A stretch of DNA of 61,358 nucleotides, counting the filler, from Sanchytrium tribonematis (Eukaryota): assembly GCA_018985235.1 (NCBI GenBank). It is 13 parts of 13 records of this genome, joined end to end, with 100 filler letters (N's around TTAATTAATTAA, not from the genome) between each part and the next. Parts side by side here need not be neighbours in the genome. Positions count along the whole stretch, not along the records: positions 51,660 to 54,835 come from JADGIG010000902.1; 12 more parts are not named here. The stretch is one strand, 5' to 3'. Positions 33,705-60,499 of this stretch are shown one piece after another. The notes under the pieces were generated by a model that was given only the letters and a program-made list of their open reading frames with translations, ran no database searches and was not told the origin of the DNA. The translations under genes and the position numbers were made by a program. Positions within the stretch are counted from its first letter, which is position 1. Every line of letters begins with the position of its first letter.

Positions 33705-34578
33705 ATGAATGAATTCTTGGGAATGTTGAGTATCTTTACTTCTTCATTCTCAGCATCAACTGGTGCATTATTTAGTAAATTGGCATCTCAATATATCCAT
33801 CTATATGATCTACTCATTATTAGATTCACTGGTCAATTGTTTATCATTTCAATTATTTCAGTTGTTTTGGATATCAACGTATTTAAACAGCCATATATCA
33901 AGCAGCAAGTCAGTCGTGGATGTCTTGGCACCATCACATTTGCATCTACACTATATTCTAATGCAAATATGGAATTATCAAGTTCTGCCATGATTCGATA
34001 TTTAGGACCATTTATCACCATGATACTCGCTAAAACCTATTTAAAAGAAGAAATTAGTAAATTAAAATACATCGGAATGTGTATTGGCTTTATGGCCGTC
34101 TTGCTAATTGCAAAACCATTTCAAGAAACACATTCAAATTATCCAAATCGATCATTAGCTATTATAGCCAATTTTATAGCTGCAATATCAGCAGGCATCT
34201 CCACTATATTGACTAAAGAGATAGTCAAATACACCCATATTGCCAGTTTAATGTTTTATTTTGCATTTACCAGTTTAATCATCACATTTCCCCTTTTATT
34301 TCTCCCACATTCATCCGTATCCATGGATTCTAGTGGTATTTATGCCATTTTAATGATGATTTGCTATTTTCATGGCTCAATTATTTGGTAATACGGGTAT
34401 TAAACAAGTTCCTGCAAGTGTCAGCACATTAATTCAAAGATCTGATATGATATTTGGTGTATTTTATGGCGTAGTCATATTTAAAGAATCATTAGATATA
34501 TATTCTATTGTTGGATGTACTATGATATTAGTTGTGAATGGTTTATTGGCATTTGAACAATATAAATTGCAAAAATAA
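33705..34578 (+). CDS. EamA/DMT-family transporter with a 1-nt frameshift at ~34370
   Basis: About ten TM helices over two ORFs; YLGPFITMILAKTYLKE and YGVVIFKESLDIYSIVG. Confidence 0.85.
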
Positions 34579-34580
34579 AT

Positions 34581-34898
34581 TTATTGAAATATAATATTTG
34601 GTATTTCTTGCTTTGTAGTCCATATTTTTGGTGCTTTGTTTGTAACTGCATTTGTAAAATGATCACCAATTTCAACACATAATGTCGTATTGGAATAATT
34701 TCCATTATTTTTGATGCCACAAATGGATTTTGATGTTTCATCAATGAAAATATCATCTACTTTCCCCATTTTTGGTAATAGTCTTAAATATCTGCCAGAT
34801 AAGATCAAATTGCATCCAACATTTCCATTATTGTATAATCCGCATTTGAAATCACTCTTTTTTGATAAATATAATTTATAAAGTGGTGGAGAACTCAT
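34581..34898 (-). CDS. Family A copy 2 (no obvious leader)
   Basis: SDFKCGLYNNGNVGC, IFIDETSKSICG, CVEIG. Confidence 0.7.
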   Translation of the reverse strand: MSSPPLYKLYLSKKSDFKCGLYNNGNVGCNLILSGRYLRLLPKMGKVDDIFIDETSKSICGIKNNGNYSNTTLCVEIGDHFTNAVTNKAPKIWTTKQEIPNIIFQ

Positions 34899-35067
34899 TG
34901 ATAATGCGTATAACTTTAAATAGATGTATTTACGTCAATAAAATACCAGCCAATCACAGATCCTTCAGAAACTTGCATCCATACACAAATGCAAGCCAAT
35001 ACTTGCCAAATGATTCTGCACGGAGGATTACTTTTTTAGAAATGTAAACATCGCCATGAATTTGCAT

Positions 35068-35490
35068 TTATTGATTTGAAATCTTTTCTTTTTCAGAAGT
35101 CACTTCTAAAAATCCAGATGCCACAACAGTTGCTTCTTTATCAGTCACTTTCATCTCAAATATAGATCCGATCACAATACACTTTCGAGTGATATCCGAA
35201 TATAATTTTTTACCTGATTTATCTTTAATAGGTTTGTTCACCACAGTACAAACGGATTTCGTATCTTCTTCCACATAAATGGATTCTAAATGATCATCTG
35301 TCAATTTCATTTCATAATATTCCAAGTGCATTGTTGAAATCACTTTGCATTTCACTTTTGGTTTATGTAAAATACAAGTGAAATTACTTTGTTGCGATAC
35401 CACCAATTGTTGGAAATCCAATTCATTCAGATTTGTATCCATTGATTTTTGGTTCGTTGCAATGGCAGATAATGGAAGATGAAAGAACAT
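35068..35490 (-). CDS. Family A copy 3
   Basis: MFFHLPLSA leader; SNFTCIL, SIYVEEDTKSVC, CIVIGS. Confidence 0.75.
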   Translation of the reverse strand: MFFHLPLSAIATNQKSMDTNLNELDFQQLVVSQQSNFTCILHKPKVKCKVISTMHLEYYEMKLTDDHLESIYVEEDTKSVCTVVNKPIKDKSGKKLYSDITRKCIVIGSIFEMKVTDKEATVVASGFLEVTSEKEKISNQ

Positions 35491-35695
35491 GTTTAATCGA
35501 GAAACGTGGTTGATTTTTAAACAAGAAAGCAAGCAATTTTATTTAAAAGAGCCAATCAAAACATTTGGCAAACACTGATAATATGGGTAAATCCAATCAT
35601 GGTTTACACAGAATGGATTATCCAATAACCCAAATATTTGTTTGGTGTTGACCAAATGGAATAAAGAATTTAAAAATTTAAATGTTAAAATTGAT

Positions 35696-36061
35696 TTAAT
35701 GAGTATTTGTTTTAATAGCGTGCTTCGAAATCACAGTTGGAGTCTTTCTAGCATCTTTTGCTTCAAATTTGGATCCAATATTGACGCATTTCACTTCTTT
35801 CTCGAAATATTTGCCATTTAATACGGTTGCTTCTTCCAATGCACAAATAGATTGTTTGTCTTCATCAATATAAATAGATTTCACATATTGAAATCTCATT
35901 TCTGTCCAATTTGTGTCCTGATTTGAAGCACAAAATACTATTTCTGTTTTGTGTAAAAAGCATTTAAAATCACTCTTTGTAGAAGCAACTATTCCTTTTG
36001 AATCTTGGGCTACTAATGGTGATGCGAATAATATTGAGTGGTAGATCATGATGGATGACAT
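35696..36061 (-). CDS. Family A copy 4
   Basis: MIYHSILFASP; SDFKCFL, SIYIDEDKQSICA, CVNIGS. Confidence 0.75.
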   Translation of the reverse strand: MSSIMIYHSILFASPLVAQDSKGIVASTKSDFKCFLHKTEIVFCASNQDTNWTEMRFQYVKSIYIDEDKQSICALEEATVLNGKYFEKEVKCVNIGSKFEAKDARKTPTVISKHAIKTNTH

Positions 36062-36623
36062 GGCTTCCTTTTTAATTCAAAATCGTCATCATTGTAATCC
36101 AATGAAATCACTGCTAGGTTCTTTTAGCCAATCAAATAGACTGTAATATCTTTTTAATAAGTCTAATCCAATTAAGGATTATAAAATGTCTTGGCCACTC
36201 AGACTCAAATTCAGAAATTGCCCGTTAATCTCAATGAACCTGAGAAAACGAATTTGACTGCATACTTTTGCATATTTTGATGCGATCAGCACTATCAAAC
36301 CCACATTGAAATATCTATAATAAAATAATATCAATTCTTTATTTTACTCTTGCGTCTTAAATGAATTTCACCGTGTCTACGAGTATCGAGTAAATCAAAT
36401 TCATATCCAAGATAGACACATTTTTCGGCTGTTATATGGTATCTTACCTTGTTTTGAGTTTCATCGTAATTATAAAATGCGCAAATGGTTCGTTTATTTT
36501 CCCCTTTAAAGAATATTCTTTGGACACCTTGTCATTGTCCAATAAATGGATTGACTTGCTTGCTTGTTAATCGAGTTTACCACTAGTACGCAATGACAAA
36601 TTTCCATAAAATATTTATTCAAA

Positions 36624-36962
36624 TCAACTAATTGATTTCAAAATTGCTTTTGTTTTCGTATCACTTTGTTGAAAAGTAGATCCAATTGGAACACATTTCT
36701 CGTATGTAACTTGTTGTACATTCGGTTCAAATGTCTCAAATACACAAATAGATCGTGTAACTTCGTTGATATAAATAGAAGTCACATGTGAGAATTGAGT
36801 CATTTGATACAATTTTCCAGGATTAGTACTTGAACCACATTTTACAATTTGTTGTATTGGATACAATCCGCAAATAAATTCACTGTTTTTTGATGCTTTG
36901 ATAGTTCTTCCGTACTTTGTGACCCCTAATGGTGATGCGAATAATGACAAGTAGAAAATCAT
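36624..36962 (-). CDS. Family A copy 5
   Basis: MIFYLSLFASP; SEFICGL, SIYINEVTRSICV, CVPIGS. Confidence 0.75.
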   Translation of the reverse strand: MIFYLSLFASPLGVTKYGRTIKASKNSEFICGLYPIQQIVKCGSSTNPGKLYQMTQFSHVTSIYINEVTRSICVFETFEPNVQQVTYEKCVPIGSTFQQSDTKTKAILKSIS

Positions 36963-37287
36963 AATAATGAGAGTGAGATCCTCTTCTTTTATGGTAATTT
37001 ATAATTTGTTTGATTGGATCAAATTCAATGTATTGTGTTTGCAAATTATTGATTCCAATCGAGAGACTGGTAAATGGCTTGCATTCATTTGAAAATTATA
37101 TGATTTCATGATGGTTTGGATCGTATCCTGATGAAATATTTGAATAAAACATTAATAGAATATTGTCATTTCTCTATTTCCATAAATACAAACGTGATTC
37201 GCAATTCGTTTCAAAAAACAATTCAATTTACAAATCTATCTGATTGGCTACAAATCACTTTAAAACCAATTCCCCCATTGTTCGACA

Positions 37288-38231: not shown

Positions 38232-39233
38232 TTAATTCTCTTGGGCTAATTGTTCTAATAACATTTCTAGTTCCCTTAATAATAGTTGCTCGTCTTTTTC
38301 TGTTAATACGTCTACATGCTCAGTCAATTTCTGCATCCATTGATGATTTAATGCTTGACTTGCAGTTAATCTTTCATTTGGATTTGTTTTAGTCAATTGC
38401 CATACGAAATCAACCATATCATCTTGATTTAATTGAGCCAACTTTGATTTCCTATATTTTGGTGATTTTCGATTAAATAAATGCGATAAGCTGTAAAATC
38501 TATCGGTTTCTGAATGTGGGTCGAATTCAACTATTTTTGAAAGTTCTAGAATTAAAACACCCACCATAGCACCCAGTTGATACATATCTGCTTGAATTGG
38601 ATGGTATTGAGTGTAATCATTTTGCATTTCTGGTGACATGTACAAATATGTTCCAATAGATCCTCGTCTACTTTTACTTTTGATCATGTTTTCCAAATCA
38701 CCCAATACAGCATGCCATTCATCATTTACATTTTCCAAGAATATATTCTCTGGTTTAATATCCAAATGGGCAATTCCTCGTAAATGAATATGCTTTAATC
38801 CTCTTAATATTTGTTGAATCACAATTCCAATAAAATTGATTTTTACATGATTATCTGCTGATATTGTATGAATACGCGTATGTAGATCCATTGGATAATA
38901 ATTCATAATGATCTGATGACAATCCATCTCTTCAATGGCATCTGGTGGCGTCATCATCTCAAATCCACCATATTCACCAGAAATGATATTCGGATGTTTG
39001 TATTTCAATTTACCAAACATTTTCATCCAATTTACTTCTATTTTGACATGTTTTTGCAAATCTTTATCATTTTTAGTGATGCAAATCAGTTTAATTGCAT
39101 TTGAATCATGTTTATAAACAGTAGTGATTTTAACGCCAGTATCAGTCAATTTTATTTGATTGGTTCTTGGTATGAATGTCAATTGATTCATGGGAATTTT
39201 AAATTGTGAGAATACAAAGCATGTCAACAACAT
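38232..39233 (-). CDS. Atypical Ser/Thr kinase with signal-like leader, copy 1
   Basis: AIK, HLDIKPEN, DLE, GTYLYMSPE, DMYQLG; leader MLLTCFVFS. Confidence 0.88.
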   Translation of the reverse strand: MLLTCFVFSQFKIPMNQLTFIPRTNQIKLTDTGVKITTVYKHDSNAIKLICITKNDKDLQKHVKIEVNWMKMFGKLKYKHPNIISGEYGGFEMMTPPDAIEEMDCHQIIMNYYPMDLHTRIHTISADNHVKINFIGIVIQQILRGLKHIHLRGIAHLDIKPENIFLENVNDEWHAVLGDLENMIKSKSRRGSIGTYLYMSPEMQNDYTQYHPIQADMYQLGAMVGVLILELSKIVEFDPHSETDRFYSLSHLFNRKSPKYRKSKLAQLNQDDMVDFVWQLTKTNPNERLTASQALNHQWMQKLTEHVDVLTEKDEQLLLRELEMLLEQLAQEN

Positions 39234-39314
39234 TGGGGAAATTTGTAAATTTGAGGAGAAATGCGTGATTGGATCGTGATTGGATATCATTTATTTGTGA
39301 TTGAACAATAGAAA

Positions 39315-40364
39315 TCAGAGGGATTTACCACGTGGTATTTGTTTAGCAGATTTGTTGGGTATGTAATCCTGTAATTGGATATCTATATTTTCAACATCCT
39401 TTAACCATGGATCTTTTAATGCATCTGATGCAGAATAACCGATTAAACTGTTCCACTTACTCCTAGTCAATCGGCGTATTAGTCTTATCATCAAATGAAA
39501 TGATTTTGGTAATTGTCTAAATGCATCTTTCTTCAATTTGCTAAAAGACTCAATTTGATGCGCTTTTGATACAGTATCAGATTCAAATCTAGTTTTAGTA
39601 AATAATTCAAGAGTCAAAACACCCAAAGTGGCACCCAATTGATATAAATCAGCTCTTTTTGTGTTATAAGATTTATATTTGTATTTCATTTGCGGCGGAA
39701 TGTAAATTGATGTACCACGTGGTTCATTTAATCTTTTCTGATCCGTCATGGTTTCTAAATCACCCAGTACCACAACCATTTGATTCTCGATCAAGTGAAT
39801 GAATACATTCTCTGGTTTTACATCCAAATGTGCCTTGCCCTTTGAATGAAGATATTCCAATCCTTTTAATACCCGATAAGTGACTATTTTCATTATTTTC
39901 AAGTATTCCGCTTCATATAAGATATTCAACTCTGATTTTGCTTCAGTTGATTCTTGAATTTGGATCTTTAATTCAAAAACTCTATAAAATTCGTTTAAAA
40001 ATGAAGTTAAATCATACTCGTAATAGGGCATAATAATTTGATAACAATTTAATTTATACTCTATTTCGTCATGTATTCGAATGATGTTAGTCTCCATCCC
40101 TCCAAATTCACCCTTTATGATATGATCATGTTGGAAAGTTTTCATCATCTTAATTTCATGCTGCACTATAGGTACCAATATTTCATTGTTAATGCAAATG
40201 AGTTTGACTGCTTTGATGTCACTTAAATCACTTTTTGTTTTGTAAATAGTCGTAATATGTACTTCATCATTTCCAGTATCTCTTTTTTGTTCTGCTATTG
40301 GTTTGGGGTCTAATTTACTCAATGGAATGGTGAATTGGGCAAATATCAACCATGAAATCAACAT
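39315..40364 (-). CDS. Atypical Ser/Thr kinase with signal-like leader, copy 2
   Basis: AVK, HLDVKPEN, DLE, GTSIYIPPQ, DLYQLG; leader MLISWLIFA. Confidence 0.88.
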   Translation of the reverse strand: MLISWLIFAQFTIPLSKLDPKPIAEQKRDTGNDEVHITTIYKTKSDLSDIKAVKLICINNEILVPIVQHEIKMMKTFQHDHIIKGEFGGMETNIIRIHDEIEYKLNCYQIIMPYYEYDLTSFLNEFYRVFELKIQIQESTEAKSELNILYEAEYLKIMKIVTYRVLKGLEYLHSKGKAHLDVKPENVFIHLIENQMVVVLGDLETMTDQKRLNEPRGTSIYIPPQMKYKYKSYNTKRADLYQLGATLGVLTLELFTKTRFESDTVSKAHQIESFSKLKKDAFRQLPKSFHLMIRLIRRLTRSKWNSLIGYSASDALKDPWLKDVENIDIQLQDYIPNKSAKQIPRGKSL

Positions 40365-40468
40365 GACAATAGGGGATTCATTGTGATTTTGAGTGACATC
40401 ATTAGGGGAAAATGTGATCATCATGTGAATGGGAGTGAAACAGATTGAAAATAGTCAATTTTATTGAT

Positions 40469-41506
40469 TCAAGTAGTTCTTTGTGATTCAATCATGTTAA
40501 TTATATAATAAGCTAGTTCTGGTAATTTGACATTGGTGATCCATGGATGTTTTAATGCTTGTGCTGCTGTCCATCTATCAGATTCACTGGTTCTAGTGAG
40601 TCTATAAATAAAATCAATCATCAATGGGTCCATTTTTAAGAAATAATTTTTAAATGTAGACGGATTAAAATATTTTGAATCACCCGGTAAATGATTTAAT
40701 ATAAATGAACTAGTCCCATCTTTATTCACTACATACATATTATGACCAAATAATTGTAATACTGCCATTCCCAAAGCAGCACCCAATTGGAACATGTCCA
40801 ATTTCTGAGTATTATATACAGGGAATTGATCCTTTAAATTTCCATATGAATCAAACATTTGGGGTGGTAAATAGTCAGGAGTACCTACAATATCATCTGA
40901 ATATGATTTAAATGTCATGTGTTCATAATCAATTAATATAAAATGTAATTTATGATCTTTCTTTTTCACTAAAATATTATCAAATTTCACATCTCTATGG
41001 GCGATTTGATGTGCATGTAAATGATTTAATGCTCTTAATATTTGAGTCATTGCATCTTTCATATTCTGTATAAAAAGCAGTTTAAAATTTGATTCTCTTT
41101 GAATTGTTGTAATATAATCAATTAAATCAGATGGATAGAAATTCATTGATATTTCATAACAATCCACTAAATAAAAACGAGTAAACTTGAATTGAACTTG
41201 TTGTCTCTTTCCCTCAAATGTGCCATGAATTAAATTCACATGATGAAGTGGATAATGTCTAAAATGATTTATCCAAAATATCTCAGATGTGATCATTTTT
41301 TTGAATATATTATGATTCGGATCAATACAATTCAATTTATAGGCTTTAGAATAGTCTTTAGATCTGAAAATAGCTGTTATTTTAAAATCATCATGATGCT
41401 CAATAATTTGCTGATTTCTAAATACTAGATTCTCTAAGAAATAAGATGGTGTTGGTGCGTCATCTGTATTTAATATAGAATATACAAATAGAGTGATGAT
41501 GAACAT
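40469..41506 (-). CDS. Atypical Ser/Thr kinase with signal-like leader, copy 3
   Basis: AYK, HRDVKFDN, DYE, GTPDYLPPQ, DMFQLG; leader MFIITLFVYS. Confidence 0.88.
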   Translation of the reverse strand: MFIITLFVYSILNTDDAPTPSYFLENLVFRNQQIIEHHDDFKITAIFRSKDYSKAYKLNCIDPNHNIFKKMITSEIFWINHFRHYPLHHVNLIHGTFEGKRQQVQFKFTRFYLVDCYEISMNFYPSDLIDYITTIQRESNFKLLFIQNMKDAMTQILRALNHLHAHQIAHRDVKFDNILVKKKDHKLHFILIDYEHMTFKSYSDDIVGTPDYLPPQMFDSYGNLKDQFPVYNTQKLDMFQLGAALGMAVLQLFGHNMYVVNKDGTSSFILNHLPGDSKYFNPSTFKNYFLKMDPLMIDFIYRLTRTSESDRWTAAQALKHPWITNVKLPELAYYIINMIESQRTT

Positions 41507-42268
41507 GTTAGAAGGGATGACAATGATTTGATTTTGGGGATATTTGTGTGACCACATGGTTGCACGGAGATGTCCCTTTTACTTTAGAGCAACACAATCT
41601 ATTCCAATTTTATTTATTAATGTATTGCATAGTAGTTCCTGTAATCCACAAATGATTGATTTTATATGGAAATTAACTAGAAATAAACCTGAAGATCNNN
41701 NNNNNNNNNNNNNNNNNNNNNNNNNNNNNNNNNNNNNNNNNTTAATTAATTAANNNNNNNNNNNNNNNNNNNNNNNNNNNNNNNNNNNNNNNNNNNNGAT
41801 ATTTTTGGAGGGCGTTAAATGTTATATTGGATAAATTTTAAACAAATTACTATAATATTCGAATTGGCTTTTCAAAAAACTAATATAGCACGTGGCACCG
41901 ACGAACACCACGAATATGATCGTGTGGTATCAGCGTTTTGAGGAACTTATCGTGAGGCATTGGAAAAAGTTGATGTCCATGAATTGAAAAAAATTCGTAT
42001 TTTCAAGTCATTTGATGACTTCGGTAAGGTGACGTATCGCATGGTACAAGATACTCCGTTTTAAAGATGTGGCTGATTTCTAGCCGATCGAGAATAAAAT
42101 TGGCTCAGAGGCCTTTCAAAATTATTCGGTGCGAATGGAAAAAAATCGTAGCCATCCGCTTAACCGTTTGATTGCTAAACGAAAACAAATGATTTATTTA
42201 AATTGGTTTTAATGCAGCTTTCTAGTATGCTTTTCCCAAATAAAACAATTCGTCTTTTAACTTGAGAC

Positions 42269-45302: not shown

Positions 45303-45463
45303 ATCACCATATGAAAACTATGCTCAATTTCCTTTGTAAATCTTGAATTAATGATTGACCATTCAAATTATTGGCAAGCTTTAATTTAAAAAACTTGCAA
45401 AATAAACTGATTGGTGCAATTTTGAGAATCAACTCTATTTAAACTCAAGGACTCCAATGTATT

Positions 45464-45856
45464 ATGTTGTTTCTTTCACTCGTGTTATCCACTGAAGTTT
45501 CTGTTTGTTGGAGTTGGGCATATTATTATTACACCCATAATCAATTGGCTTATGCTGATTATTATGGATGGATTTCCAATTGTTGTGTTTATGGTACGCA
45601 ACCATCTCATTTACTTGGTGGAATTTACAAGAAATCAACCAAAAAAGTGAAAAAAGTTACAAAAGTACCTCTCAATATTCCAGATTCTAGAGTAGATGAT
45701 AGTGATAATTGGGTATCTGTCAATGAAATCACATACAATAAGCATGGTAAGCGAGTATTTTATTATATGCGTGCTAATTGTGCGGCTCAATTGCCATTGC
45801 AACCAACGAGTGATGCTGCTTCTAAAATGACAGCCTGTCTTGACTCTTACCAGTAA
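45464..45856 (+). CDS. Family B copy 2
   Basis: MLFLSLVLS; CWSWAYYYY, WISNCCVYGTQP, IPDS, YMRANC, CLDSY. Confidence 0.88.
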   Translation: MLFLSLVLSTEVSVCWSWAYYYYTHNQLAYADYYGWISNCCVYGTQPSHLLGGIYKKSTKKVKKVTKVPLNIPDSRVDDSDNWVSVNEITYNKHGKRVFYYMRANCAAQLPLQPTSDAASKMTACLDSYQ

Positions 45857-46023
45857 ATATGAAATGAATTTTACCATTTAGCTCAAAAATCCTTGGGTCT
45901 CTTGTTGTACCAATCTGGTATAAGCAAGAATTAATTTGCAAACAGGAAAGCAAAACAATCCTTTATTTGATTGGTACCATTTCCAGTCACGAATCTACTT
46001 AAACCCCACCCACTTTTATTGAT

Positions 46024-46419
46024 ATGTTGCTCATCCAAGTTGTTTTATCTACAGCTGTCAGTGTTTGTTGGAAATGGGGGTATTATTATTTGAATAAAGG
46101 CTGGTTAAATTCATCCACGTATTACCCATGGATTGCAGATTGTTGTGTATTTGGATCACAACCAAATAGTTGGATAGATGGTACCAAAACAAGCAACGGT
46201 AAAAAACACCATGTAAAACCCAAAACAATTCCACTCCAAATTCCTGATTCTACAATCAGAGACACGGATTTGGCTGTATTATCATCCGGGATTGAATACA
46301 ATATACATGACAAACGAGTTTTCAAATATATGCGTGTTGCATGTATCCAACAAGTAGGAGACGCGCGTCCTAAAAATGTGGATGACTATTACAATAATTG
46401 TATTGATAGTTATACATGA
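46024..46419 (+). CDS. Family B copy 3
   Basis: Same motif set; leader MLLIQVVLS. Confidence 0.88.
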   Translation: MLLIQVVLSTAVSVCWKWGYYYLNKGWLNSSTYYPWIADCCVFGSQPNSWIDGTKTSNGKKHHVKPKTIPLQIPDSTIRDTDLAVLSSGIEYNIHDKRVFKYMRVACIQQVGDARPKNVDDYYNNCIDSYT

Positions 46420-46610
46420 ATAAAAATGTATGAATTGTGATCTTTGACTTGGGTTGCTTACTCTGCTTGCTAAATTGATTTTCAATACCACTCAAATTCA
46501 TTCAATTTAACAAAATGAAACTTGCACCAATTGATTCACTGCTAAATTTTACAAGCCATTTCGACAAGTATATTGAGATCTATTTAAGCGTGTCTGTCCC
46601 ATCCATTTAA

Positions 46611-47159
46611 ATGTTGTTCATTCAAATGATTCATTCTGCCACAGTTGCAACTTGTTGGGCGTGGGCGTATTATTATTACTACCACGGCAAATTATCAGCA
46701 GCCAATTATTATACCTGGATTGCAGATTGTTGTGTGTATGGCACACAGCCAGATCATTGGGAAGACGGTGTAGATGGCGGAGATGACAAGGGAAATAAAC
46801 ACCCACCTACCAAATTCACTAAAATCCCATTGGATATTCCAGATTCAGCTGTTTATGATGATGGCAATATTATTTCTGTTCAGACTCAAGAGTACAATTC
46901 ACATAATGTTCGAATTTATAAATATATGCGAGTAGATTGTTTGACTGCAGTCGCTCATACCAACTCAACGGATGTAGAAGGGGATTATTCACATTGTATC
47001 AATAGTTATAAGCCAGATAAACCTAGTGCAAAAGATAAAAATGATCATAAAGGGGGTAAAAAGGGAGACAAGAAGGGTGGCAAGAAAGACGGTGCGAAAA
47101 AAGGAAGCAAAAAGAATAACAAGTGGAAAAAAGCAGGCAATAAAAAGGGAAACAATTAG
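46611..47159 (+). CDS. Family B copy 4, with Lys/Gly-rich tail
   Basis: Same motifs plus KGGKKGDKKGGKK tail. Confidence 0.88.
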   Translation: MLFIQMIHSATVATCWAWAYYYYYHGKLSAANYYTWIADCCVYGTQPDHWEDGVDGGDDKGNKHPPTKFTKIPLDIPDSAVYDDGNIISVQTQEYNSHNVRIYKYMRVDCLTAVAHTNSTDVEGDYSHCINSYKPDKPSAKDKNDHKGGKKGDKKGGKKDGAKKGSKKNNKWKKAGNKKGNN

Positions 47160-47395
47160 TAAATATGATTTGAAATTGTAAAACTCTGCCATTTCCAATT
47201 ATTTCCTAATGAAATAATTACCTTGGGGGTATTGCCATTCCCACTTTGTTGTTTAGCCATGACAATTTTACACGATTTTATATTACAAAGTTTCATTTGC
47301 AATCCATTTGATTGGCCTTGCACCAACAAAATACGTGCTAATTAAATGAAATTGCGCTAATAAAATCTATTTAAACTTGATCCTCCCCACTACTT

Positions 47396-47797
47396 ATGTT
47401 GTTTATTCAATTTGTACTCTCTGCTTCTGTAAATGTGTGTTGGACTTGGGCTTATTACTATTACCAAAAAGGTCAATTAACTTCTGATAATTATTATAGT
47501 TGGATTGCCAATTGTTGTGTTTATGGGACTCAACCATCGACTTATAGCAATGGCAGGTATGTGAGAACGAATAGTTTATCATTTTATCCATTAAGGCCTT
47601 CTAAAATTCCATTAAATATTCCGGATACCAAAGTAGATGATGGAGACCCAATTGTATCTGTGAATGAAATTAAATACAATAAGAATAACAAGCGTATTTA
47701 CAAGTATATGCGAGAGAATTGTGCGGCTAAATTGCCAAAGAAACCAGATAGTAATAATGAAAGACGGTTGACAAAATGTTTGGATTCTTACGAATAA
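47396..47797 (+). CDS. Family B copy 5
   Basis: Same motifs; leader MLFIQFVLS. Confidence 0.88.
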   Translation: MLFIQFVLSASVNVCWTWAYYYYQKGQLTSDNYYSWIANCCVYGTQPSTYSNGRYVRTNSLSFYPLRPSKIPLNIPDTKVDDGDPIVSVNEIKYNKNNKRIYKYMRENCAAKLPKKPDSNNERRLTKCLDSYE

Positions 47798-48376: not shown

Positions 48377-49850
48377 ACCATTTCAGGAGTATTTTACAAC
48401 AAAATATCTATTTTATGCAGTGGTCCTGCAATTGATTCTATTCAACTCATCGGTTTGAATATTAATGGAACTATAATTAATGGTACTTTACCCTCAAAAG
48501 CTAGATCCCTTCAAATTTCATACAATTCAAAATTGGCATGTAATTTCCCAAGTGGAAATTTCCTGAATGTAGTGAATTTAGATTTGAGCCATAATGCGTT
48601 ATATGGTGATATTTTATCCATGTCTCCCAAGTTCACATCCGCCAATGTAGAATATAACCAATTAAGTGGCACATTACCCCAATTTTCTACAGCTCTACAA
48701 ACTTTGATTTTGAATAACAATCAATTTACCGGAGATTTTAAATTGTATAGTGCTACCCGGTTATCTGTGTTTGAAGCCAATAACAACCTTTTAAGTGGTT
48801 CTGTAAATAATATCACAGATTCATTAACTACTTTTTGTGTAGATGGTAATTTATTAACTGGCAATATTGACAATATCCCAAATCAAATCGTTTATTATTC
48901 AGCCAGTCATAATCAATTATCTGGTAAATTAACAGCCAATTGGCCATTCACATTAACCACTTTGAATTTAAATGGAAATCAATTTAATGGAACATTTCCA
49001 ATCAGTTTAATGCGACAAGTGCAATCATTAATGATTCAAAATAATCAATTTAGTGGGTGTTTGAATAATACATTTGCGTGTTTTAATTGTCAATTAAATG
49101 ATAATCAGTTTCAAGGGTCTGTTGTGTTTCAAAAACCAAGTAATTTGACATTACAGAATAATTTTATCACCAATGTAACAATTGTGGATAAATCTAGTTT
49201 ATTAAATTGTCAATTAGATAATAATCCAATGTTGGGTACCATTGGGGGTAAAACATTTGCAAATTCATGTTCTATTAATGGAATATTTATGGATACAGGA
49301 TATCATTGTGGGAAAGCATATACGCGATTGTATAATACAATAACAAGTGAGAGTACTTCTAGTACGACAACAGCGAAAAAGACTAGTTTAAGTGCAATAG
49401 AGACAACAATAAACACCAATCTACCAAGCAGATCATTGGATACAACAGAAAGTCGTCTAGAAACCTTGACAACTAGCAATTTAGAGTCACAAGAAATAAT
49501 TGCAGAGTCAATTACAGATGTATTTACAATTCAAACACGTTGTTCTTAATAATTTAGGACCCATTTTTGTTAGTAAATTGACTAAAACAGTCGATAATCA
49601 AGTATCACGTAGCACATTGTATCAAAAAGTAATTTCAAACACTGTTTCATTAAAATTGAAAACAGATTTTACATCTACAAGCAGTATTGAGAAATGGAAT
49701 GGTTCAATCAACGAGTTCAAATTGAAATATGAGACCAGTCAAGTTGCTAGATTGGGATTCAGCTTAATATTTATTGGGTTTATACTGGCGAAAATGCCAT
49801 TGAAAAAGACATTGAAGAAGAATCATAGAAGTGAAAGTATGGAACAATAA
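48377..49850 (+). CDS. Extracellular LRR protein with S/T-rich stalk and C-terminal TM; 5'-partial, frameshift near 49535
   Basis: LxxNxLSGxLP repeats; Thr/Ser stalk; RLGFSLIFIGFILAKMP anchor. Confidence 0.8.
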
Positions 49851-49935
49851 ATAGATGGATGTGATCAATTGGACAATGAGTATGTCTCTCGATTCAATTC
49901 AACTGCTTAAATTACCCACTTTACCCATCTTCTTG

Positions 49936-51559
49936 ATGCTACTGACGCTGCTGCTCAATTTCTCAGTATCAATAGACTGTCCAATAGTCTTGAAACTAGC
50001 TACGCAGATGCATTTTAAGCAGAAGTTCCCGACAACCTACCAGCAACTGGAGAAAGACTGCTGTTTGGATTCTGGAATAGTTTGTCAAGATGGACGCGTT
50101 ACACAGATGCGATGGACAGATTCTACCGGGTATTATTCTCCAGAGCCCACAATTAAAGAGCCAAACACGACCATTTACTCATTTCCTTCGAGTCTTGAAG
50201 TTTTGGATATGGACCAGTTTTTTGGGGGCACTATCAACGAATTGCCAGTGAATATGACATATTTAAGATTGGTTACATCTTATGTCACGTTGAATGTGAG
50301 TGCAATGTCTCAGAAATTGACATATGCATATTTGGATTTTGTAAACTGCATTCAAGACGCAATTTGGGGGGACAGTCTTTCTACAGTTGATATAGAATCA
50401 TCCAATATGATAGACTTTCCAAAGCTACCTGCTTCGGTAAAAGATTTGAAAATGTGGAGGAATAGATTTACAAAAAAGACATCAAAATACCTGATTGGCC
50501 TGTAGCTCTAAATAGGCTTACTTTGGTTGGTTGTTATTTTACGAGCGTGTCTCCAGAATTACCAGATAATCTGAGCTATCTTGAAATCAGAGAAACAAAC
50601 CTTGGTGGTGATTTAATTTTGAAAAATGTTATAAGCGTTTTTCTACGATACACTAATTTCGCAAATATATATGCTTGGACTATACCGCTTGGGTGTACTA
50701 TTGTAAATCATCCGAGTTTGAACATGTCGAGTGTAGCGAATATGACTACTTCGAATTGTTACATCAGTCAACCTAAAACAGCGCCAAAAGATTGTGCCCA
50801 AATTGTCAAAATGGCCGAATTATTACATATTCCAACTGCTTCACCTGGTGAATTTGAACTACTGAAAGCAAATTGTTGCGAATTCAGATATTTTACTTGT
50901 ACCGGAAATCATGTTGTTGGCGTTTGCTTGGCTGAATTGAGTCTATATGGTACTTTAGATGTATCTTTGCTTCCAGCTACTGTTACGTTATTTGAAATAT
51001 TTGGAAATCACGTTAACAAAGTCATTGGGCAATTTCAAACTACCAATTTGCAGCAAATGTACATGGATTATAATGAGATAAGTGGACCCTTATTTGAAAT
51101 TCCCTCAACTTTGACTACCTTATTTATTGGTAAAAACTTCTTAAATGGGACCATAGACTTGTCAAATGCGAGAAATTTGAAACTTTTGGGAATTGGAGAT
51201 AATTATTTTGAAGGTGCCTTGAATATCAGTGGATTGAGTCTATCATTACTTCAATATTGAAATCGGATATGACTATTACTACCTAAATGGTACATTTGGC
51301 CCACTTGGATTGCCTCCTCATCCACACAGTTTATGGTAATTTCCCACAAATCCCCTTGAATATGACTCAGATTACAATTAGCAATTGCTTTATGGGTGGA
51401 GATCTGCCTGTGTTTCCACCTACTTTGAGCGTATTGTCGTTAAATAGAGCAATGTGGGCTATTACCAATGTTTATTTGACGGGTAATTTGACTTTGAATG
51501 CGCCATCCATTGTCCAGATTGCCAGTAATCAAATTACAAGTGTGAATATAAATGATGCA
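49936..51559 (+). pseudogene. Multi-module LRR protein with DC...CC...C caps, several frameshifts, 3'-partial
   Basis: Leader MLLTLLLNFS; caps DCPIVLKLA...DCC and DCAQIVKMA...NCC; frames break at ~50475, ~51243 and ~51320. Confidence 0.75.
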
Positions 51560-51659
51560 NNNNNNNNNNNNNNNNNNNNNNNNNNNNNNNNNNNNNNNNN
51601 NNNTTAATTAATTAANNNNNNNNNNNNNNNNNNNNNNNNNNNNNNNNNNNNNNNNNNNN

Positions 51660-52378
51660 TCACCCCGATAAATTACCAAATCATCCATTCCCCTATTCAA
51701 TTCGACCAAAAAATCAACAATGCACACAACCATGACCAAAATACTAGTACATATACACCAACTTTGTAATAGAAATCCTCCCAAATAATTACAAATGAAA
51801 ATAAAGGAAGCAGATATTAAAATCATTGGAAATGTCACAAATGCAATATTTTTTAGTGTTTTTTGCTTTTTATTGTTGCGATATAATGGATTCTTATTAA
51901 TCATTTTATAAATATGGTATCCCACATATCCTGTTAAATTAGAGCATAAAATATCGGTCACGTATATGCCAAAATTTGCAATAAAATCCCAATATGGATT
52001 TAAATATAATAATCTCATATTTAATGTGGTACATGATAAAATGACTAGACCTACAAAGTAAATACGAATGATATAATGTAAACATGTGTAATTTCTGAGA
52101 ATGGCATAACTAGACGTGATGACTAGCTGTGAATCAAGTGCAATAAAGAATAATATTGTGTATATCCAATGATTTGATGATTTTAATGCGCTAATGGCAT
52201 AAAATAGCGCGATTAAAAGCGTCATTGAAAATAATGACATATTAAAGCGTGTAGGGCCACAGACGTAGATACAAACCAGTATAATGAGGGTTGAATGCAT
52301 AGATAACATGCTTGAAAAGGATTGATTGAATGAAATGAGAAATTGTTGAGTATTGGACCAATTTAAAACACTAGACAT
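51660..52378 (-). CDS. Multi-pass (about 7 TM) membrane protein, 3'-partial
   Basis: Successive hydrophobic helices; basic loop NNKKQKTLK. Confidence 0.6.
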
Positions 52379-52673
52379 TCAAGTGGCTTGTCGGGCCATT
52401 ATTTGTGGGCTATCATTAATAATTTGATTAAAATAGACTCTTAATCAACTTTTATGATGGCGGCACGATGCCAACATGTGCAAATCTCCGATCTTTGCAA
52501 TATTGTGATCAAACGTATAGTCATCTCCCCAATCAGACGATGAAAAAATACACTCCCTGAGTCGTGATTGATCATGACGATCCAATCAGGAGGTATCATT
52601 TGCCCATTTTACCAGACACATGCGCTCTAAATGTTATATAATGAGTCATTTGCATTCTTAATTGAAACTTGAA

Positions 52674-53000
52674 ATGTTAGACTTGCCATTCCATGATAGA
52701 AATAACAGAGAGATTAGAACACCACGCCCATTCAGGATGATTGAAGTAAAGGATTATGATGAATACGTTGAATTGCAACAGAGCTATGAGCAATTATGCT
52801 GTTTAATGATAGATGAGCATCCTAGTAAAATTGATGAATTGGAATTGCAAGAAATGCAGGAAATGGAAAAGTCCTTGATTGAATTTACCAAGGAGAATGC
52901 GAGTTTATATCCAGAATTGTCGATGAGTGATCTCTATGAGATGATTGAGTATTACAAAAACACAATATTGCGTATTTTGACTGAGAATCAACCAATATAG
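52674..53000 (+). CDS. Hypothetical acidic helical protein
   Basis: 108-aa ORF with upstream CCAATCA and TATATAA. Confidence 0.55.
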   Translation: MLDLPFHDRNNREIRTPRPFRMIEVKDYDEYVELQQSYEQLCCLMIDEHPSKIDELELQEMQEMEKSLIEFTKENASLYPELSMSDLYEMIEYYKNTILRILTENQPI

Positions 53001-53001
53001 T

Positions 53002-53879
53002 TTATTCCATATTTTCCAATAAATAATTGGCAGCTAATTCCTCATTTCGATCACAAGCTAAATACGCCTCAATACAGGCTTCTCTACTGAATCCTAAATT
53101 CATTAATGACTGTATTTTTTGACCATCCTCTTGACTTAATTCAATTTGCACTTCTAAATGAAATAAAAAGGACCTCGAGGTTCTCCCTGATTTTGCATTT
53201 GTTGCAAATATTGCATGATTTGTTGACCCATTTGAGGATTAGCAGCCATTAATTGCTGTAATACTTCTGGATTTGACTGAATTAATCCTAATAATTGCTC
53301 CATTTGAGTTTGTTCATTGGCATCCAAACTGATTTCATTCATTTCTGGTTGTTCTTGCACTTCTTGTGGAGGTGGCAATGGGTTCAATTGTTCTACTTCA
53401 CCTTGTGACTCTAATTGACCACTTAATAAATACTCAATGGCTCTATCTGGATGATTAAATGCTTTTCGCATGGCTTTTTGAATATCTTGCTCATTAAATC
53501 CCATTTCTTTCATTTCTTTGGTGGCTTTCTGCAATGCATCACCAGATAATACATTCGTATTTGTAGTTGGTGTATCTGGGTGTTTTTTGGTTGGAGAATT
53601 GGGTTCTGAATTAATTGGGGATTTTGGTGTTTTTGAGACTGGTTTTGGCTGTGCTTGTGGGGCAGATTTAGATTGGCTGATCATATAGACAATATGATGC
53701 TCTGGTTGATATAAATCACTCATTAATTGAGAATCCTCTAAAATTTTACCTTGATAAATACATTTGATTTGTTCTGGAGCACATTTCTCGTGTTCACTTA
53801 AATAAGTTTTGATCTCGCTAACAGATTTCGCAGTGCATTTGGTTGTTACGTTTTTCAGATTTTTGAGCGTGACCTCCAT
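53002..53879 (-). CDS. RAD23: UV excision repair protein Rad23 (UBL-UBA-STI1-UBA); exons 53879-53174 and 53153-53002
   Basis: [12 protein letters not shown]...[12 protein letters not shown]1 EMGF...[12 protein letters not shown]; spliced UBA2 [30 protein letters not shown]. Confidence 0.95.
53154..53173 (-). other. 20-nt spliceosomal intron GTCCTTTTTATTTCATTTAG (phase 1)
   Basis: Removal restores the frame into UBA2 (CGA G|AA GTG); spliced CDS is 858 nt. Confidence 0.85.
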
Positions 53880-53926
53880 GTGTTGCAAAAAATTGCGAAT
53901 TTCGAATTTTGCCAACTTGTTTTAAA

Positions 53927-54835
53927 ATGGGCTCCGATTTTGATTACTCTGATTTACAAAAACAAACATTAAAATTCATTCATAAACACCATCCCAGTAA
54001 TTTCAAGCCAGCAGTAGATGTCTTTAAATCATTCAAAGATTATTTATTAAGCCATAAAATCACTTTAACCAGTTTATTGCATCTTAGACAAGTCTGTTAT
54101 CAATTATTAGTGTATTTAATATGTAAACCATTTCCACATCGGTCCTATATGAATGTTTTCAATTATTTTTCAAAAGTATCTTCATTTAAACGCATTTCTG
54201 AGAAGGATTTGCAATTTTATACTTCTAAATCCAGTCAAAGAAGGAATGGAGAGACTGTTATTGATAAAGCAATGCGATTAGAAATGGAAATGAAATGCAA
54301 TCAACTAGAATTGAAAGAAAATATCATTGAAACTAAAGCAACCCAAGTAGGCACCAAAGAGCCCATAAAGGTAGCATCAAATGAAACTCCAAAAATCACT
54401 TGTGAATTACTACAAATGAAATACACTGAGCAGAATCAAAACCAAGAGATGGGAGACTCAAGAATGAACATTAACAATTTGATAGAAGCAATAGAAGTCG
54501 AAAATGATGAAAACGAGCCTAAAAATGGAACTAATGGTAATTTGGAAATTGAGATGCCTCAGGATATGGAAATTGAGAAACAAGAAACGCCGTCAGAGGG
54601 ATCTGAGTCTAATATACAGGTGTTAAGAAATAGAGTTATTTCTAGTGAATCTGATGAAATGTCTACAGAATCAAAAGCATCCGGAATGACTGAGAAAAGT
54701 TCAATTTCTTCTCAATCATCTTCTATTCATTTTTCAAACACACAGCAAGATTCAATTGATTATTTGTCAAAAGTAAAAGAGATTGTCAAAGATTTATTAT
54801 CCAAATACCCACACAGATCCATGACCATTCAAAAA
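53927..54835 (+). CDS. Hypothetical protein, 3'-partial
   Basis: Open frame of over 300 codons with acidic low-complexity middle. Confidence 0.65.
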
Positions 54836-54935: not shown

Positions 54936-57900
54936 TACAGATTGAGGATCAACCAATGAATGCATTTATAGATTCAGGATCATCGATAAGTATTATCGAT
55001 AAAGACACAATGAAGGATTATGGTCTATTAGACCATTCGGAAGATTGCTATAAGGCATTTTCTTCTATTAATAACCACAAAGTAGTGGCGGAAAAGAAAT
55101 TAAGGATTGGAATTCAATTAGGTAATGTGACTATTACAACTACATTATATGTACTAAATAATTCCAAATTTAAATTGCTTCTTGGAATGAATTTTCCAAT
55201 GCAAGTAGATAGTATTAGTTTTAAAAACATGAATGTCATGTACAAGGGTATAAAATTTCCCTTAAGACAGAATTTACTAAATGATCATATTAATGTTGTT
55301 TCTGAAGATTCTATTGATGGAGAGATTCCATTTTTCGATGATTTTGATGGTGGATTAGATGCCAAAAAAATTTGGTATGGAAGAAAATCGATCAACCATA
55401 TGCAATATACTTAAGAGTCATAAAGGGGTTTTTGATGGAAAACTCGGTGCGGATGTACCCATTGAGCATGAAATTAAGATCAGTGATGTTCCAAAGTCAT
55501 TTAAACCATATAATGCCTCACATAAAGAGAGAGGTATAATTGAAAAAGAAATTCAAAAGATGTTAGATTTAGACGTAATTGAGAGAAGTCCAGCGTCTCC
55601 ATATAGTGCACCGGTAGTGCTCGTTTCAAAAGCCAATACAACAGAAATGAGATTTTGTGTTGATTATAGAGCATTAACTAAAAACTCAGAATCAGATTCA
55701 TACCCACTACCAAAGATAGATGTAATTTTAAAGGAATTCCACGGAAAGAAATATTTTACAAAAATAGATTTAAGAAAAGGATATTGGCAAATACCAATGA
55801 AAAAAGAGGATATCATAAAAACAGGATTCATTACACACATGGGTCATTTTGTGTATAAAAACATGCCATTTGGACTTATGAATTCAGGCAAAACGTTTCA
55901 AAAGATTATGGATCTAGTATTTTCCGATTACCTTAATCATGAGGTTTTCTGCTACCAGGATGATATATTAATTACCTCGGATACAGAAGAGAGACATCTA
56001 GAAATGATTAACAATGTATTCGACTTGTTAGAAAAATATAATTTAAAGGCATATTGCAACAAGTGTACTTTTATGTTTACGAGTGCGACTTATTTGGGAT
56101 TTTATTTGGGTGGTCAAGTTGTCAAACCAGATCCAGAGAGTCAAGCCGATTTTAGATTTTGATTCGCCAACAAACATTAAGCAAATGCAAAGATTTTTAG
56201 ATATGGTAGTTACTATCGAGGTTCTGTTCAAAAATTTGCTATCATTGCTCAGCCAATGTATAAGTTACTTCGCAAAAGAGAGAAATTTTTGTGGGGAAAA
56301 GAACAGAATGAGTCATTTGAAAAGATCAAAGAGTTGATCAAATATCCCATCTTGCTTAAACACGCAGATTTCGAGAAACCATTTACAATAGAAGTGGATG
56401 CATGTGACCATGGAGTTGCAGCAATATTAAAACAAGACGGACATATTATAGCTTTAGCTTCAAGATTGCTAAAAAATAATGAATTGAGATGGCCAGTTAG
56501 AGAAAAAGAGCTATATTCAATTGTTTTCGCATGTACAAAATTTAGATTTTTCATTGATGCAAAGAACGACACTATTTTAAAAACAGATCACTTAAGTTTG
56601 AGTTATTTAAAGACAATGAAGATTAGTGCGAAAATTAGTCGATGGGTAATGTTCTTAATGGAATTCAATTTAAACGTATTTTATGTACAAGGATCTCAAA
56701 ACAAGGATGCAGATCTATTAAGTAGACTAAATGACAAACTAGAAGATGTTTGTGCAGCGTTCACCAGAGGACAGAAACGAAAGGAAGCCATTGATTACAA
56801 GGCTGAATCAGGAAGTATTGAATCAGATGCAGACAATTATTCCATAGAAAACAGGTCATTCGAAAATCAAACAAATGATGCTGAATTGACAGTAGATGAA
56901 ATCAAATCAATGCACGAAGAAATGTCACATATTGGCATTGACAAAATTTACAAGTACCTAAGAGAAAGAGGATATCCAGTCACGAAAAAGAATTGTGGAG
57001 ATGCAATTAGAGACTGTGTTGTATGCCAGTCATCAAAGAAGACTGCAAGACATATCAAGAAAGTGGTCCAGGATGTGGATTATGGACTTTATCCTATGCA
57101 TACAGTTGCAATGGATGTAGTTGGTAAATTACCAACAATAGAAACAGATGGACAAGAATATTCATATCTATTAGTTATAGTAGATATTTTTACTCGATGG
57201 TGTGAAGTAATACCATTAAATGGACTAACTGGTCCCGAGACAATGAACAAATTTAAAAATGAATGGATCTCAAGATATGGACGACCACAAATGCTTTTGT
57301 TAGACAATGAAACTAACTTTACAGCAAACAAATTCAAAGCGTATTTAGATAAGGAGAATATTGAATATCATTTTACATCTCCAGGATATAAACCCGGAAA
57401 CGGTTCTGTGGAGAGATTAAATTTGACCATATTAGATTACGTCAGAGCAAATATCATTGATGACAACTGGTTAGAATCACTAAACAAAATATTGCCAGTA
57501 CTAAGATTTTCATATCATAGGTCTATTGATACAAGCCCTTATGAATTATTATTTGGGCTCAAAGCTGAGTGGGGAAGTAAAACTGTCTTAAATAGACATA
57601 ACCACTTACTTACAAGATGGAATGACATTAACAATAATGCTTCCTTAGAAAATTATGTGAATCGAGAAGTAACAAGAAAAAGACTGGAATCTAAAAAGCC
57701 AGCAATTCCAATTCAATTAAATGATATGGTATTAGTACCAAATCCAGATGATAAAACTAAAATTGATAAAGAATTTGTAGGACCATATAGGGTTGTAGAG
57801 ATTTTGCCCTACGGAAATATACTAACTGATAACGGAGGCCGATTCAATCAAAACCAAGTTAAAAGAATACAAGATAAAATTACAAGTGGAGATGTAGAAA

Positions 57901-58104
57901 ACATTAACGCTTTATACGAACTACCGATGACAAAATCTGGTGGGAGTGTCGCATCCAACACGTTATATCAAAGCGTGATTGGATGTAATTTAGATCAAAA
58001 TGATCTAATTGATCTAGTCAATTCAAGACAAGATCCAAGTCCTCTAATAAGGCTTGGATCCCAATCAGATGATGGCGCATGCTTAACTAAACAAAGCATG
58101 CGCT
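54936..58104 (+). mobile_element. Ty3/gypsy element 3: protease-RT-RNaseH-integrase with frameshifts, PPT and start of the 3' LTR at 57947
   Basis: FIDSGSS, IDLRKGYWQI, YQDD, VDACDHG, EKEL, ADLLSR, HEEMSH...CVVC, integrase D-D-E, GPY; TGGTGGGAG then TGTCGC. Confidence 0.93.
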
Positions 58105-58204: not shown

Positions 58205-58725
58205 AAATGATTTGTCCTTCTACATACTCTAAAAGCATCAAAATCAGATTACACAACAATTTACAAATTACCACTGAATTATTGAAAAGAGCAGAAATGA
58301 TGGGTATTGATTTCATCACAATCCATGGCCGTACTAGATCTGAAATGACCAAAGTCCCAGTACGCATTCACGATATGAAAATCTTGAATGAAACCGTGCA
58401 AATCCCCGTTATTGCCAATGGAGATGTATTTTCTCTCCAAGATGCTCAAAATATGATTAAATCTACCCATTGCAGAGGTGTATCTGTAGCACGTGGACTA
58501 TTAATGAATCCTGAATTATTTACAGGTGCCTCTCAAACCAGCTGGAATTGCATTCACAAATATTTAGATTTAGGTGTCTCGTATGGCACTCATCCATTTA
58601 TTATCTCACATCATTTGAGTTATATGATGGAATCTCTATTGAGGCGAGTATTCCGAGTATCATTGATTTTATTGAAGAAAAGAGTGAAGTGTGAATTTAT
58701 TGAGGTTAATTTCTGTGTCCTTTAG
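58205..58725 (+). CDS. DUS4: tRNA-dihydrouridine synthase (Dus4-like), 5'-partial, C-terminus frameshifted
   Basis: SIKIR, ITIHGRT, IPVIANGD, GVSVARGLLMNPELF, HHLSYMME. Confidence 0.85.
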
Positions 58726-59008: not shown

Positions 59009-59357
59009 GTACGATGTGGGTCCATTTTGGTATTTATTTTTTAATTAATAATGCAAGGTTTGCATCGACCAGTAATGCGCATCACATAATTTGCAAGCAC
59101 TTGCTGCAAAACAGTTTGAAATGGATTGTCAAATCAATAATTTTTGATACAAATGTCCACAACTTTATTTTTACTTATAAGCGTGCTCTGTTATGTATTG
59201 TGAAATAGAAAGGAACCCGTACAAAAAATCTTTTTCAATAAAATATTTCAATGAGTTGATTGGTTCAAAATTTGCCATTTAGAAGATTCTAATGTTTGAT
59301 CCAGTAAATTCGCGACATTTCAATTTATAAACCCTGGTGTCACTTTCTTGTTTACAA

Positions 59358-60499
59358 ATGTTGTTGGTACCATCGCTTTTTGCGTTGACGGATTGTGAGA
59401 ATTTGAAACAATTTGCAATCCATTTAAATATGCCACAAATTCAACCAGATTTGATGAAAGATGTCATTAACAAATGTTGTACAGAATATATCAATGGAGT
59501 AACGTGTGACTTGGGAGTTATTACAAGTGTAGAATGGTCATATTTGGGGTTAAATGGCACCATTGATACAACTTTTTTACCTTATCAATTGATTCATTTG
59601 AATCTAGAACAGAATCAATTAAATGGAACTCTGCCACAGACAGGATATCCCGTCACTTTAGAGAGTATCAATGTGGCCACAAATCAATTTAGTGGGAAAA
59701 TACCTCGATTCCACAATGGTTTGGTTAGCATGACACTCGAAAATAATTACTTTACTAGTTTTGATACATTACCAGTCACTTTGACTCTCTTCTATGCAAA
59801 TTTCAATCAGTTAAATCAAAGTTTCCCAGAAAATTTGCCAAAGGATATAATTCGATTCTCAGCTCAAAGCAATCGACTAAATGGTACAATAAGCAATTTG
59901 CCTGCAACTTTGACTTCTCTAAATTTAGCATACAATTTTATGAGTGGTGTCATTCCAAATCTTCCTGCTGGTTTTTTGTATTTAGTGGTACATTACAATC
60001 AATTCATAGGATTGACATATCCACTTCCGGACTCACTTAAAAATATGGTCCTGAGCTATAATTTTATTGTGGGTTCTATTATATTTCCACCAAATATAGG
60101 AGGATTTCTTGCAAATTCAAATTATTTTTATGGCAATTTGCCGCAATTTTCATTGTCTTTGGAATATTGAATGAAACCGCTTCAACTAGAACGTATTTCA
60201 TTGCAGCCACTAGAAATATAAAACGAACAACAGAAATGACAACATTTACAAAAACGGCAAATTATCCATTTTCCAACACCATTTCTGACTTGACAGAAGC
60301 AGAGACAGAACCAACCGAGTCTGTCATTAAAATCCCACTTTATGAAGTCAATTTTACGCAATTCACTATGAATTTGACCATATTATCATTTGCAAGATCA
60401 CTTGCTTCCATGTTTATACTTGCATTTGTTATTGCTAAGACGCCTTGGAGGAAATCAGCTAAAAGAGATACATCATCAATGTCCATGTCAATAAATTAA
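59358..60499 (+). CDS. LRR protein (DC...CC cap, LRRs, S/T stalk, TM), interrupted at 60170
   Basis: MLLVPSLFA; DCENLKQFA...KCC...WSYLGLNGTI; second ORF supplies the stalk and RSLASMFILAFVIAKTP anchor. Confidence 0.75.

Follow-up and report, generated by a model that had tools for sequence, protein, structure and literature searches.

The Rad23 gene of the sanchytrid Sanchytrium tribonematis is very probably interrupted by a real U2-type spliceosomal intron of 20 nt (53154–53173, minus strand), an assignment made at the level of the DNA, from which splicing itself is predicted. It likely belongs to a sparsely distributed group of sanchytrid introns, predicted to be 19–22 nt long. The window, the whole stretch of 61,358 nt analyzed here (assembly GCA_018985235.1), consists of 13 pieces joined via N spacers and has a G+C content of ~33%. 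Rad23 exon 1 (53174–53879, minus strand, 706 nt) encodes, as judged from translation and Pfam, the ubiquitin-like domain (PF00240, E 1.4e-08), the first UBA domain (UBA1; PF00627, E 8.1e-09), and a Q-rich linker. It is followed by the intron, which reads GTCCTTTTTATTTCATTTAG on the minus strand, has GT and AG ends, lies in phase 1 on translation, and is 60% T. The acceptor TAG is an in-frame stop, and without excision the protein has 241 residues and ends at this codon, after the ubiquitin-like domain, UBA1, and the linker. Excision of the 20 nt gives a Rad23 of 285 residues to which the missing UBA2 is attached. Exon 2 (53002–53153, minus strand) comprises the UBA2 domain (PF00627, E 9.9e-14) and the stop codon, and its UBA matches UBA2 of RAD23A/B and yeast Rad23 in eight PDB sequences (best E 4.4e-10). 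The stretch has the GT...AG ends of a U2-type intron, and its excision restores a conserved protein; the earlier note's claim of a 20-nt intron at this site is upheld at the level of the DNA.

We give very little credence to the reading that sanchytrid Rad23 truly ends at the TAG, with the UBA2 sequence left over as a relic or belonging to a frame of its own. All five database Rad23 proteins of the clade do lack UBA2, but the Amoeboradix gromovi proteins are genomic ORF calls predicted without introns (PMC8371127), and we infer that those of the other clade members are intron-blind calls as well; proteins called in this way read into introns. Exon 2, moreover, encodes an intact UBA and lacks a Met close to where it begins. 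Its one allelic variant, at 53035, falls on the last base of a Leu codon and is silent when read in the exon 2 frame. In a profile search with 149 hits, the Rad23 UBA1 motif was present in 75, and 58 of these 75 have a terminal UBA2; some of the other 17 are fragments or have UBA2 farther from the C terminus.

An assembly slip had to be considered, given that plain frameshifts occur elsewhere in the window and that one extra T also joins the two Rad23 frames. In this very unlikely case, one base would be missing from a T5 run, through a slip or a decaying frameshift, and the gene would be intronless. A DNA contig from run X1 (depth 77) that covers 51918–54698 differs from the window by 28 substitutions and 13 gap letters over 2.8 kb, but the gaps all lie at 52442 and 54370, there are no indels within Rad23, and the silent variant at 53035 is the only difference in the gene. 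Because X1 may come from the same sample as the window, a slip is ruled out for this assembly only. Comparison of the piece at 51660–54835 with X1 shows a second allele that is ~1% different in the flanks, the insertions being of 12 nt at 54370 and of 1 nt at 52442. The protein sequence also speaks against a slip: the frameshifted reading places four hydrophobic residues among the eight that precede UBA2 and the spliced reading places none, and more than three are found in 0 of the 58 full-length Rad23 proteins. Finally, a slip is at odds with the behavior of the four close Rad23 relatives, all of which stop in the same region, and it leaves the second intron described below unexplained.

The Sanchytriomycota are algal parasites and the sister group of the Blastocladiomycota, with genomes of 10.5–11.2 Mb and ~35% G+C (PMC8371127). 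Among named organisms, the sanchytrid A. gromovi is nearest in both genes considered here, with 55% identity in Rad23 and 76% in HMG-CoA lyase. In all four close Rad23 relatives (48–57% identity), UBA2 is absent and the protein ends near the same linker site. Their tails have a Gly at the end of the linker followed by 2 to 15 residues, as predicted for read-through of a G/GT junction, the Gly having been chosen post hoc within a variable linker. In one of these proteins (P0002, 57% identity), the tail contains FISFR, a word that also appears when the Rad23 intron of the window is read one frame over (rough chance ~3e-4); the 3' part of the intron would therefore be conserved and its length different by one base.

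The second intron interrupts the HMG-CoA lyase gene on a separate piece of the joined window (12819–12838, minus strand), so that the earlier note's observation of the same 20-nt length on a different contig stands. It is a GT-AG intron in phase 0 with an A at position −6 (12824), and it separates the 3' part of exon 1 (12839–13200, minus strand, Pfam HMGL-like 99–209), whose 5' part lies beyond the end of the piece, from exon 2 (12573–12818, minus strand, HMGL-like profile positions 211–259). The lyase barrel is complete only after excision. The A. gromovi lyase (P0008) is a full intronless ORF of 310 residues that aligns without gaps to the two exons of the window and to the human enzyme. 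The remaining four of the five close lyase relatives are broken at the identical codon, each with a Val (GTN) there; the chance of a Val at the break is 0.059 per relative, the relatives not being independent. The position of the break is therefore common to orthologues of both genes, at the exact codon in four of five lyases and in the same linker in four of four Rad23 proteins, where the exact site is less sure. In a lyase tree (21 rows, all cut at the end of exon 1, with bootstrap values not fully settled), the six clade sequences group at 100/99. Loss of the intron in A. gromovi is the simplest reading, though a weak one given the internal support of 81/73. The human HMGCL gene may also be interrupted at this codon, following Gln250, in which case the lyase intron would be ancestral; the literature searched gave no confirmation, and no conclusion here depends on it. 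Five clade lyases (P0006–P0010) also lack the same three residues close to the N-terminal substrate loop, a deletion that can serve as a marker for sanchytrid-like metagenome sequences.

Intron lengths in the relatives were back-translated from eight protein tails rather than read as DNA, and they represent two intron positions only, so the counts from relatives are not independent. The corresponding DNA was sought in metagenome, viral, and prokaryote genome contigs, and none was found there. Two lyase tails decode into exon 2 only via GT-AG excision, of 22 nt in P0007 and 19 nt in P0010, and each score was reached by 1 of 300 random tails. For the Rad23 relative P0002, the score was matched by 41 of 300 random tails and is not significant; a 31-nt intron scores 17 and a 19-nt intron 15, and the tail itself permits 19 or 22 nt. 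A length of 20 nt in P0003 requires that the stop of this protein serve as the acceptor, in which case the A is at −5 rather than −6, and P0004, P0005, P0006, and P0009 stop too early for any length. The lengths overall are 20, 20, 22, 19, and probably 19 nt. The earlier note had proposed a ruler of exactly 20 nt, which is not supported in that form because the orthologous lyase introns of P0007 and P0010 decode to 22 and 19 nt. Since the lengths differ modulo 3, one conserved frameshift could not bridge the relatives. This bears on programmed ribosomal frameshifting, which could in principle yield full-length Rad23 without splicing at the CCT TTT TA run found at the Rad23 break; with 19, 20, and 22 nt in relatives, however, it would demand shifts in differing directions, and the lyase break cannot accommodate 6–7 extra residues relative to the intronless orthologue. 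We regard its probability as close to nil.

With the Rad23 and lyase stretches read as introns, their donors can be compared. Both are weak within the intron. Scored against the consensus CAG/GTAAGT, the Rad23 donor has 5 of 9 matches and the lyase donor 6 of 9; the Rad23 exon side contributes AG/GT, which contradicts the description of this donor as "only GT" in the earlier note. The two are alike only at +1, +2, and in the T at +5 and +6, and they do not fit a strong 5' site of 5 bits or more. A G at +5 is generally almost universal among fungal donors. Here it is ruled out for 7 of 10 donors and allowed by the other 3, the ten representing only the two intron positions, and +3 is variable. 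It is hardly credible that a degenerate intron of the minor (U12) type interrupts Rad23. The donor there, GTCCTTT, has a loose similarity to the U12 donor GTATCCTT, but two core bases of the U12 donor consensus (RTATCCTT) are missing, nothing like the TCCTTAAC branch is present, and the lyase donor is unlike that of Rad23. Furthermore, six minor-spliceosome proteins, searched for by KO identifiers, gave 0 rows among those listed for A. gromovi.

At the 3' end of the U2-type intron preferred here, an A occupies position −6 in both window introns and in both relatives with a significant length (P0007 and P0010), and this position is free in P0002. The A is probably the branch point, spaced constantly and closely from the AG; the distance is consistent with a constrained A at −6 in this small sample. 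The predicted branch-point A of Rad23 is at 53159 (minus strand), the sixth base counting back from the 3' end of the intron, and was chosen because its position matches that in the lyase intron and is forced in P0007 and P0010. The TnATTTAG sequence is not supported as an invariant signal: the decoding of P0010 requires a G at −4, and the window contains 28 copies of the octamer, with 27.4 expected from 30 order-3 Markov simulations. At this chance-level frequency, it was rejected as a stand-alone signal. Spans of the form GT..TnATTTAG with lengths of 19 and 20 nt occur four times each, compared with ~1.3 expected for each, a modest and post hoc excess. From the proposal of a degenerate donor with a fused branch and acceptor there survive the weak intronic donor and the probable A at −6, but not a fixed octamer.

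Length and acceptor do not suffice to define these introns. The 40 long open frames of the window (36,159 nt) contain 478 GT..AG spans of 18–23 nt, 7 of which fit T-n-A-Y-n-TAG; six of these are G-richer, and the remaining span closely mimics the real introns. This look-alike (41167–41186, minus strand), a 20-nt GT..TTTATTTAG within an intact kinase frame, is predicted to be unspliced, which means that further features must matter and that the signals proposed here are incomplete; the length ruler plus acceptor suggested earlier is not supported as a sufficient rule. Spans of 13–60 nt with GT..AG ends that join frames number 154 in the window, and homology supports only two. The statement that just two introns can be supported agrees with this count, but it takes no account of an unproven third candidate of 19 nt with an A at −6 (49539–49557, plus strand), which would connect an LRR/Ser-Thr-rich frame to a membrane-anchor tail. 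For this junction, no bridging paralogue was found at E 0.01 among 184 candidates, and the paralogue within the window aligns downstream of the junction only. A scan for 5'-proximal tiny introns gave two matches, both upstream of EF-1beta and both implausible. The EF-1beta gene itself (13536–14207, minus strand) appears to be intronless.

Other breaks in the window were read as frameshifts, whether assembly errors or real lesions. Tiny introns were considered at a kinase (~22300), EamA (~34370), and Dus (~58650) and at three LRR breaks (~50460, 51260, and 60170) and were rejected, no fitting GT..AG being present. The protein kinase gene (21614–23070, minus strand) has at least two frameshifts, one of them at the catalytic-lysine motif; a 19-nt GT..AAG span at 22317–22335 joins its frames yet would remove that motif. 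The EamA transporter (~34370, plus strand) is frameshifted ahead of the last helices, and the frame of the tRNA dihydrouridine synthase gene Dus (58640–58690, plus strand) shifts within a short tandem repeat close to the 3' end, where residues seem to be missing, either through a collapsed repeat or a real lesion. The window also contains expanded secreted LRR genes (48377–51607 and 59331–60499, plus strand), some with a Ser/Thr stalk and a membrane tail and several frameshifted, and three Ty3/gypsy-like pol regions (3299–5977, 8136–9884, and 54936–58104, plus strand) with reverse transcriptase, RNase H, and integrase recognized by inspection, two of them frameshifted. Secreted Cys-rich proteins with chitin-binding (hevein-like) repeats, again by inspection, are encoded at 21196–21579 (plus) and 23364–24380 (minus). 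Three tandem arrays are lineage-specific and secreted: (i) three kinases with signal-peptide-like starts (38232–41578, minus strand), (ii) four Tyr/Cys-motif paralogues (45443–47797, plus strand), and (iii) five short Cys-motif paralogues (33169–36998, minus strand). All three arrays are candidates for host-directed proteins.

It is unlikely, but worth weighing, that the Rad23 intron is real and mostly retained, or cut at an acceptor 3 nt downstream, so that the main Rad23 form lacks UBA2 or is one residue shorter. Short introns of the microsporidian Encephalitozoon cuniculi are spliced poorly, 30 of 37 at under 50% (PMC3629993), and in Rad23 the TAG acceptor is followed by a tandem AAG (53151–53153, minus strand) that makes an in-frame alternative of 23 nt possible; P0002 likewise permits 19 or 22 nt. 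Against retention, the lyase barrel would remain incomplete, and against the 23-nt form, no earlier AG separates the TAG from the presumed branch A, and the TAG obeys the YAG rule for acceptors. This alternative bears on efficiency and leaves the existence of the intron untouched.

The major spliceosome is documented for the nearest named relative only. The A. gromovi annotation (Supplementary Data 1 of PMC8371127) includes, among the rows listed, Prp8, Brr2, SF3B1, U2AF1, U2AF2, BBP, U1-70K, a U1A/U2B''-type protein, Luc7, Prp40, Prp16, and Prp22. The four U1-associated entries (U1-70K, the U1A/U2B''-type protein, Luc7, and Prp40) run counter to the suggestion of independence from U1. In the recommended check for U1 snRNP and U2AF components, U1-70K, U2AF1, and U2AF2 were found and U1-C was not. 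A text search by identifier found no U1-C, Slu7, or Prp18 among those rows, and such missing rows, those of the minor spliceosome included, serve as leads only, the annotation being automatic and made on fast-evolving intron-blind ORFs. Since U1-C was not found, U1 function may be weakened. The A. gromovi BBP/SF1 is split into two adjacent ORFs (NODE_116 p11 and p12), possibly with a tiny unrecognised intron between them. An Rfam search of the window returned no family and no snRNA.

These parts suggest how such introns might be processed. The major spliceosome would recognize the whole intron across its short length, by intron definition, with weak pairing of U1 to the donor assisted in Rad23 by the exonic AG. 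U2 might pair with the U-rich body so that the A at −6 is bulged and branching occurs there, and the AG five bases past the branch A would be chosen mostly by position. With such near-positional choice, Slu7 and Prp18 would be unnecessary. Yeast can dispense with both where the branch lies close to the acceptor, and a minimum distance is believed to be imposed by Prp18, the shortest observed being 7 nt (PMC10711555). By the convention of that source, an A at −6 corresponds to 5 nt, below its observed minimum. The narrow range of lengths could reflect a deletion bias from above and a steric floor from below, with no exact 20-nt ruler. We tentatively propose, as an idea that could well fail in one part or another, that sanchytrids have a largely intact major spliceosome minus Slu7 and Prp18, with rare introns of 19–22 nt that lack +5G and have an A fixed at −6. 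These would be the shortest introns of any true fungus and would depart from the rule by which a genome poor in introns evolves a strong splice-site consensus.

The 40 frames of 150 or more codons, which amount to 36 kb, contain 2–3 introns, or ~0.06–0.08 per kb; this estimate is soft because expanded gene families and retroelements abound in the window. Values of 1.30 per kb for Allomyces and 3.93 for chytrids have been reported, by a different method (PMC8476143). That intron-blind calls reach ~92% BUSCO completeness (PMC8371127) also suggests a low intron density. According to Irimia and Roy, intron-poor genomes have strong donors, and genomes rich in short introns have weak ones, the intron-poor, strong-consensus type being set at under 0.15 introns per gene (2008, PMC2483917). 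The apparent pairing of a low intron number with weak donors and constant branch spacing departs from this pattern. No description of spliceosomal introns in sanchytrids was found in the literature searched, which included PMC10459994 and PMC8371127 with part of its supplements. The inferred 19–22 nt appear shorter than any fungal intron found reported, and introns of this kind seem to have been overlooked in sanchytrids. Tiny introns as such are known, and what is apparently new within that literature is the sanchytrid lineage, the size in true fungi, and the mix of few introns with weak donors. If the assignment is correct, it would add one more independent origin, this time in the lineage sister to the Blastocladiomycota, and, within the same literature, a new minimum size for true fungi. 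It would also provide a tiny-intron spliceosome near enough to that of yeast for part-by-part comparison and a direct test of short branch-to-acceptor distance against loss of Slu7 and Prp18. Because sanchytrid proteomes were called without introns, truncated proteins such as a UBA2-less Rad23 are present in public databases, and they may distort claims of gene loss for the phylum.

Introns this short are otherwise found in a few protists, nucleomorphs, and parasitic animals, and the comparisons that follow draw on the available portions of the cited reports. Stentor coeruleus has ~8,800 introns of 15–16 nt with a conserved GUA and a branch A at position 10 or 11 (PMC9505925). As in Stentor and other heterotrichs, the predicted sanchytrid introns combine GT-AG ends with an A/U-rich body, a weak branch consensus, an A sixth from the 3' end, and retention of U2AF, but they are 19–22 nt long, apparently rare, variable at +3, and found in a fungus (PMC9505925). 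Introns of 18–21 nt in chlorarachniophyte nucleomorphs, of 20–33 nt in Paramecium, in the same size class in dicyemids (PMC10245619; PMC2483917; PMC3629993), and with medians of 22–27 nt in myxobolid myxozoans (PMC13644364) are similar in size and have a donor close to GT(A). These groups are intron-rich and are described with no clear fixed branch signature (PMC10245619; PMC2483917; PMC13644364), whereas in sanchytrids the density looks low and the A at −6 recurs. Rozella allomycis is also a holomycotan parasite but is intron-rich (2.53 per kb) and of another lineage (PMC8476143). Mikrocytos mackini, a parasite with a few hundred introns of 16–17 nt, resembles sanchytrids in its narrow range of tiny introns but is rhizarian, with highly conserved intron sequences and a spliceosome of 17–19 proteins in mikrocytids (PMC10245619). 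The fungal relative E. cuniculi, with introns of 22–76 nt and strict donor and branch motifs (PMC3629993; PMC2483917; PMC6349667), is likewise intron-poor, with short introns and a branch near the AG (TAAYTT). It differs in that no U1 snRNA is identified in those accounts and in having ~30 spliceosomal proteins (PMC3629993; PMC2483917), whereas the sanchytrid donors are weak and the A. gromovi annotation contains U1 proteins as well as U2AF.
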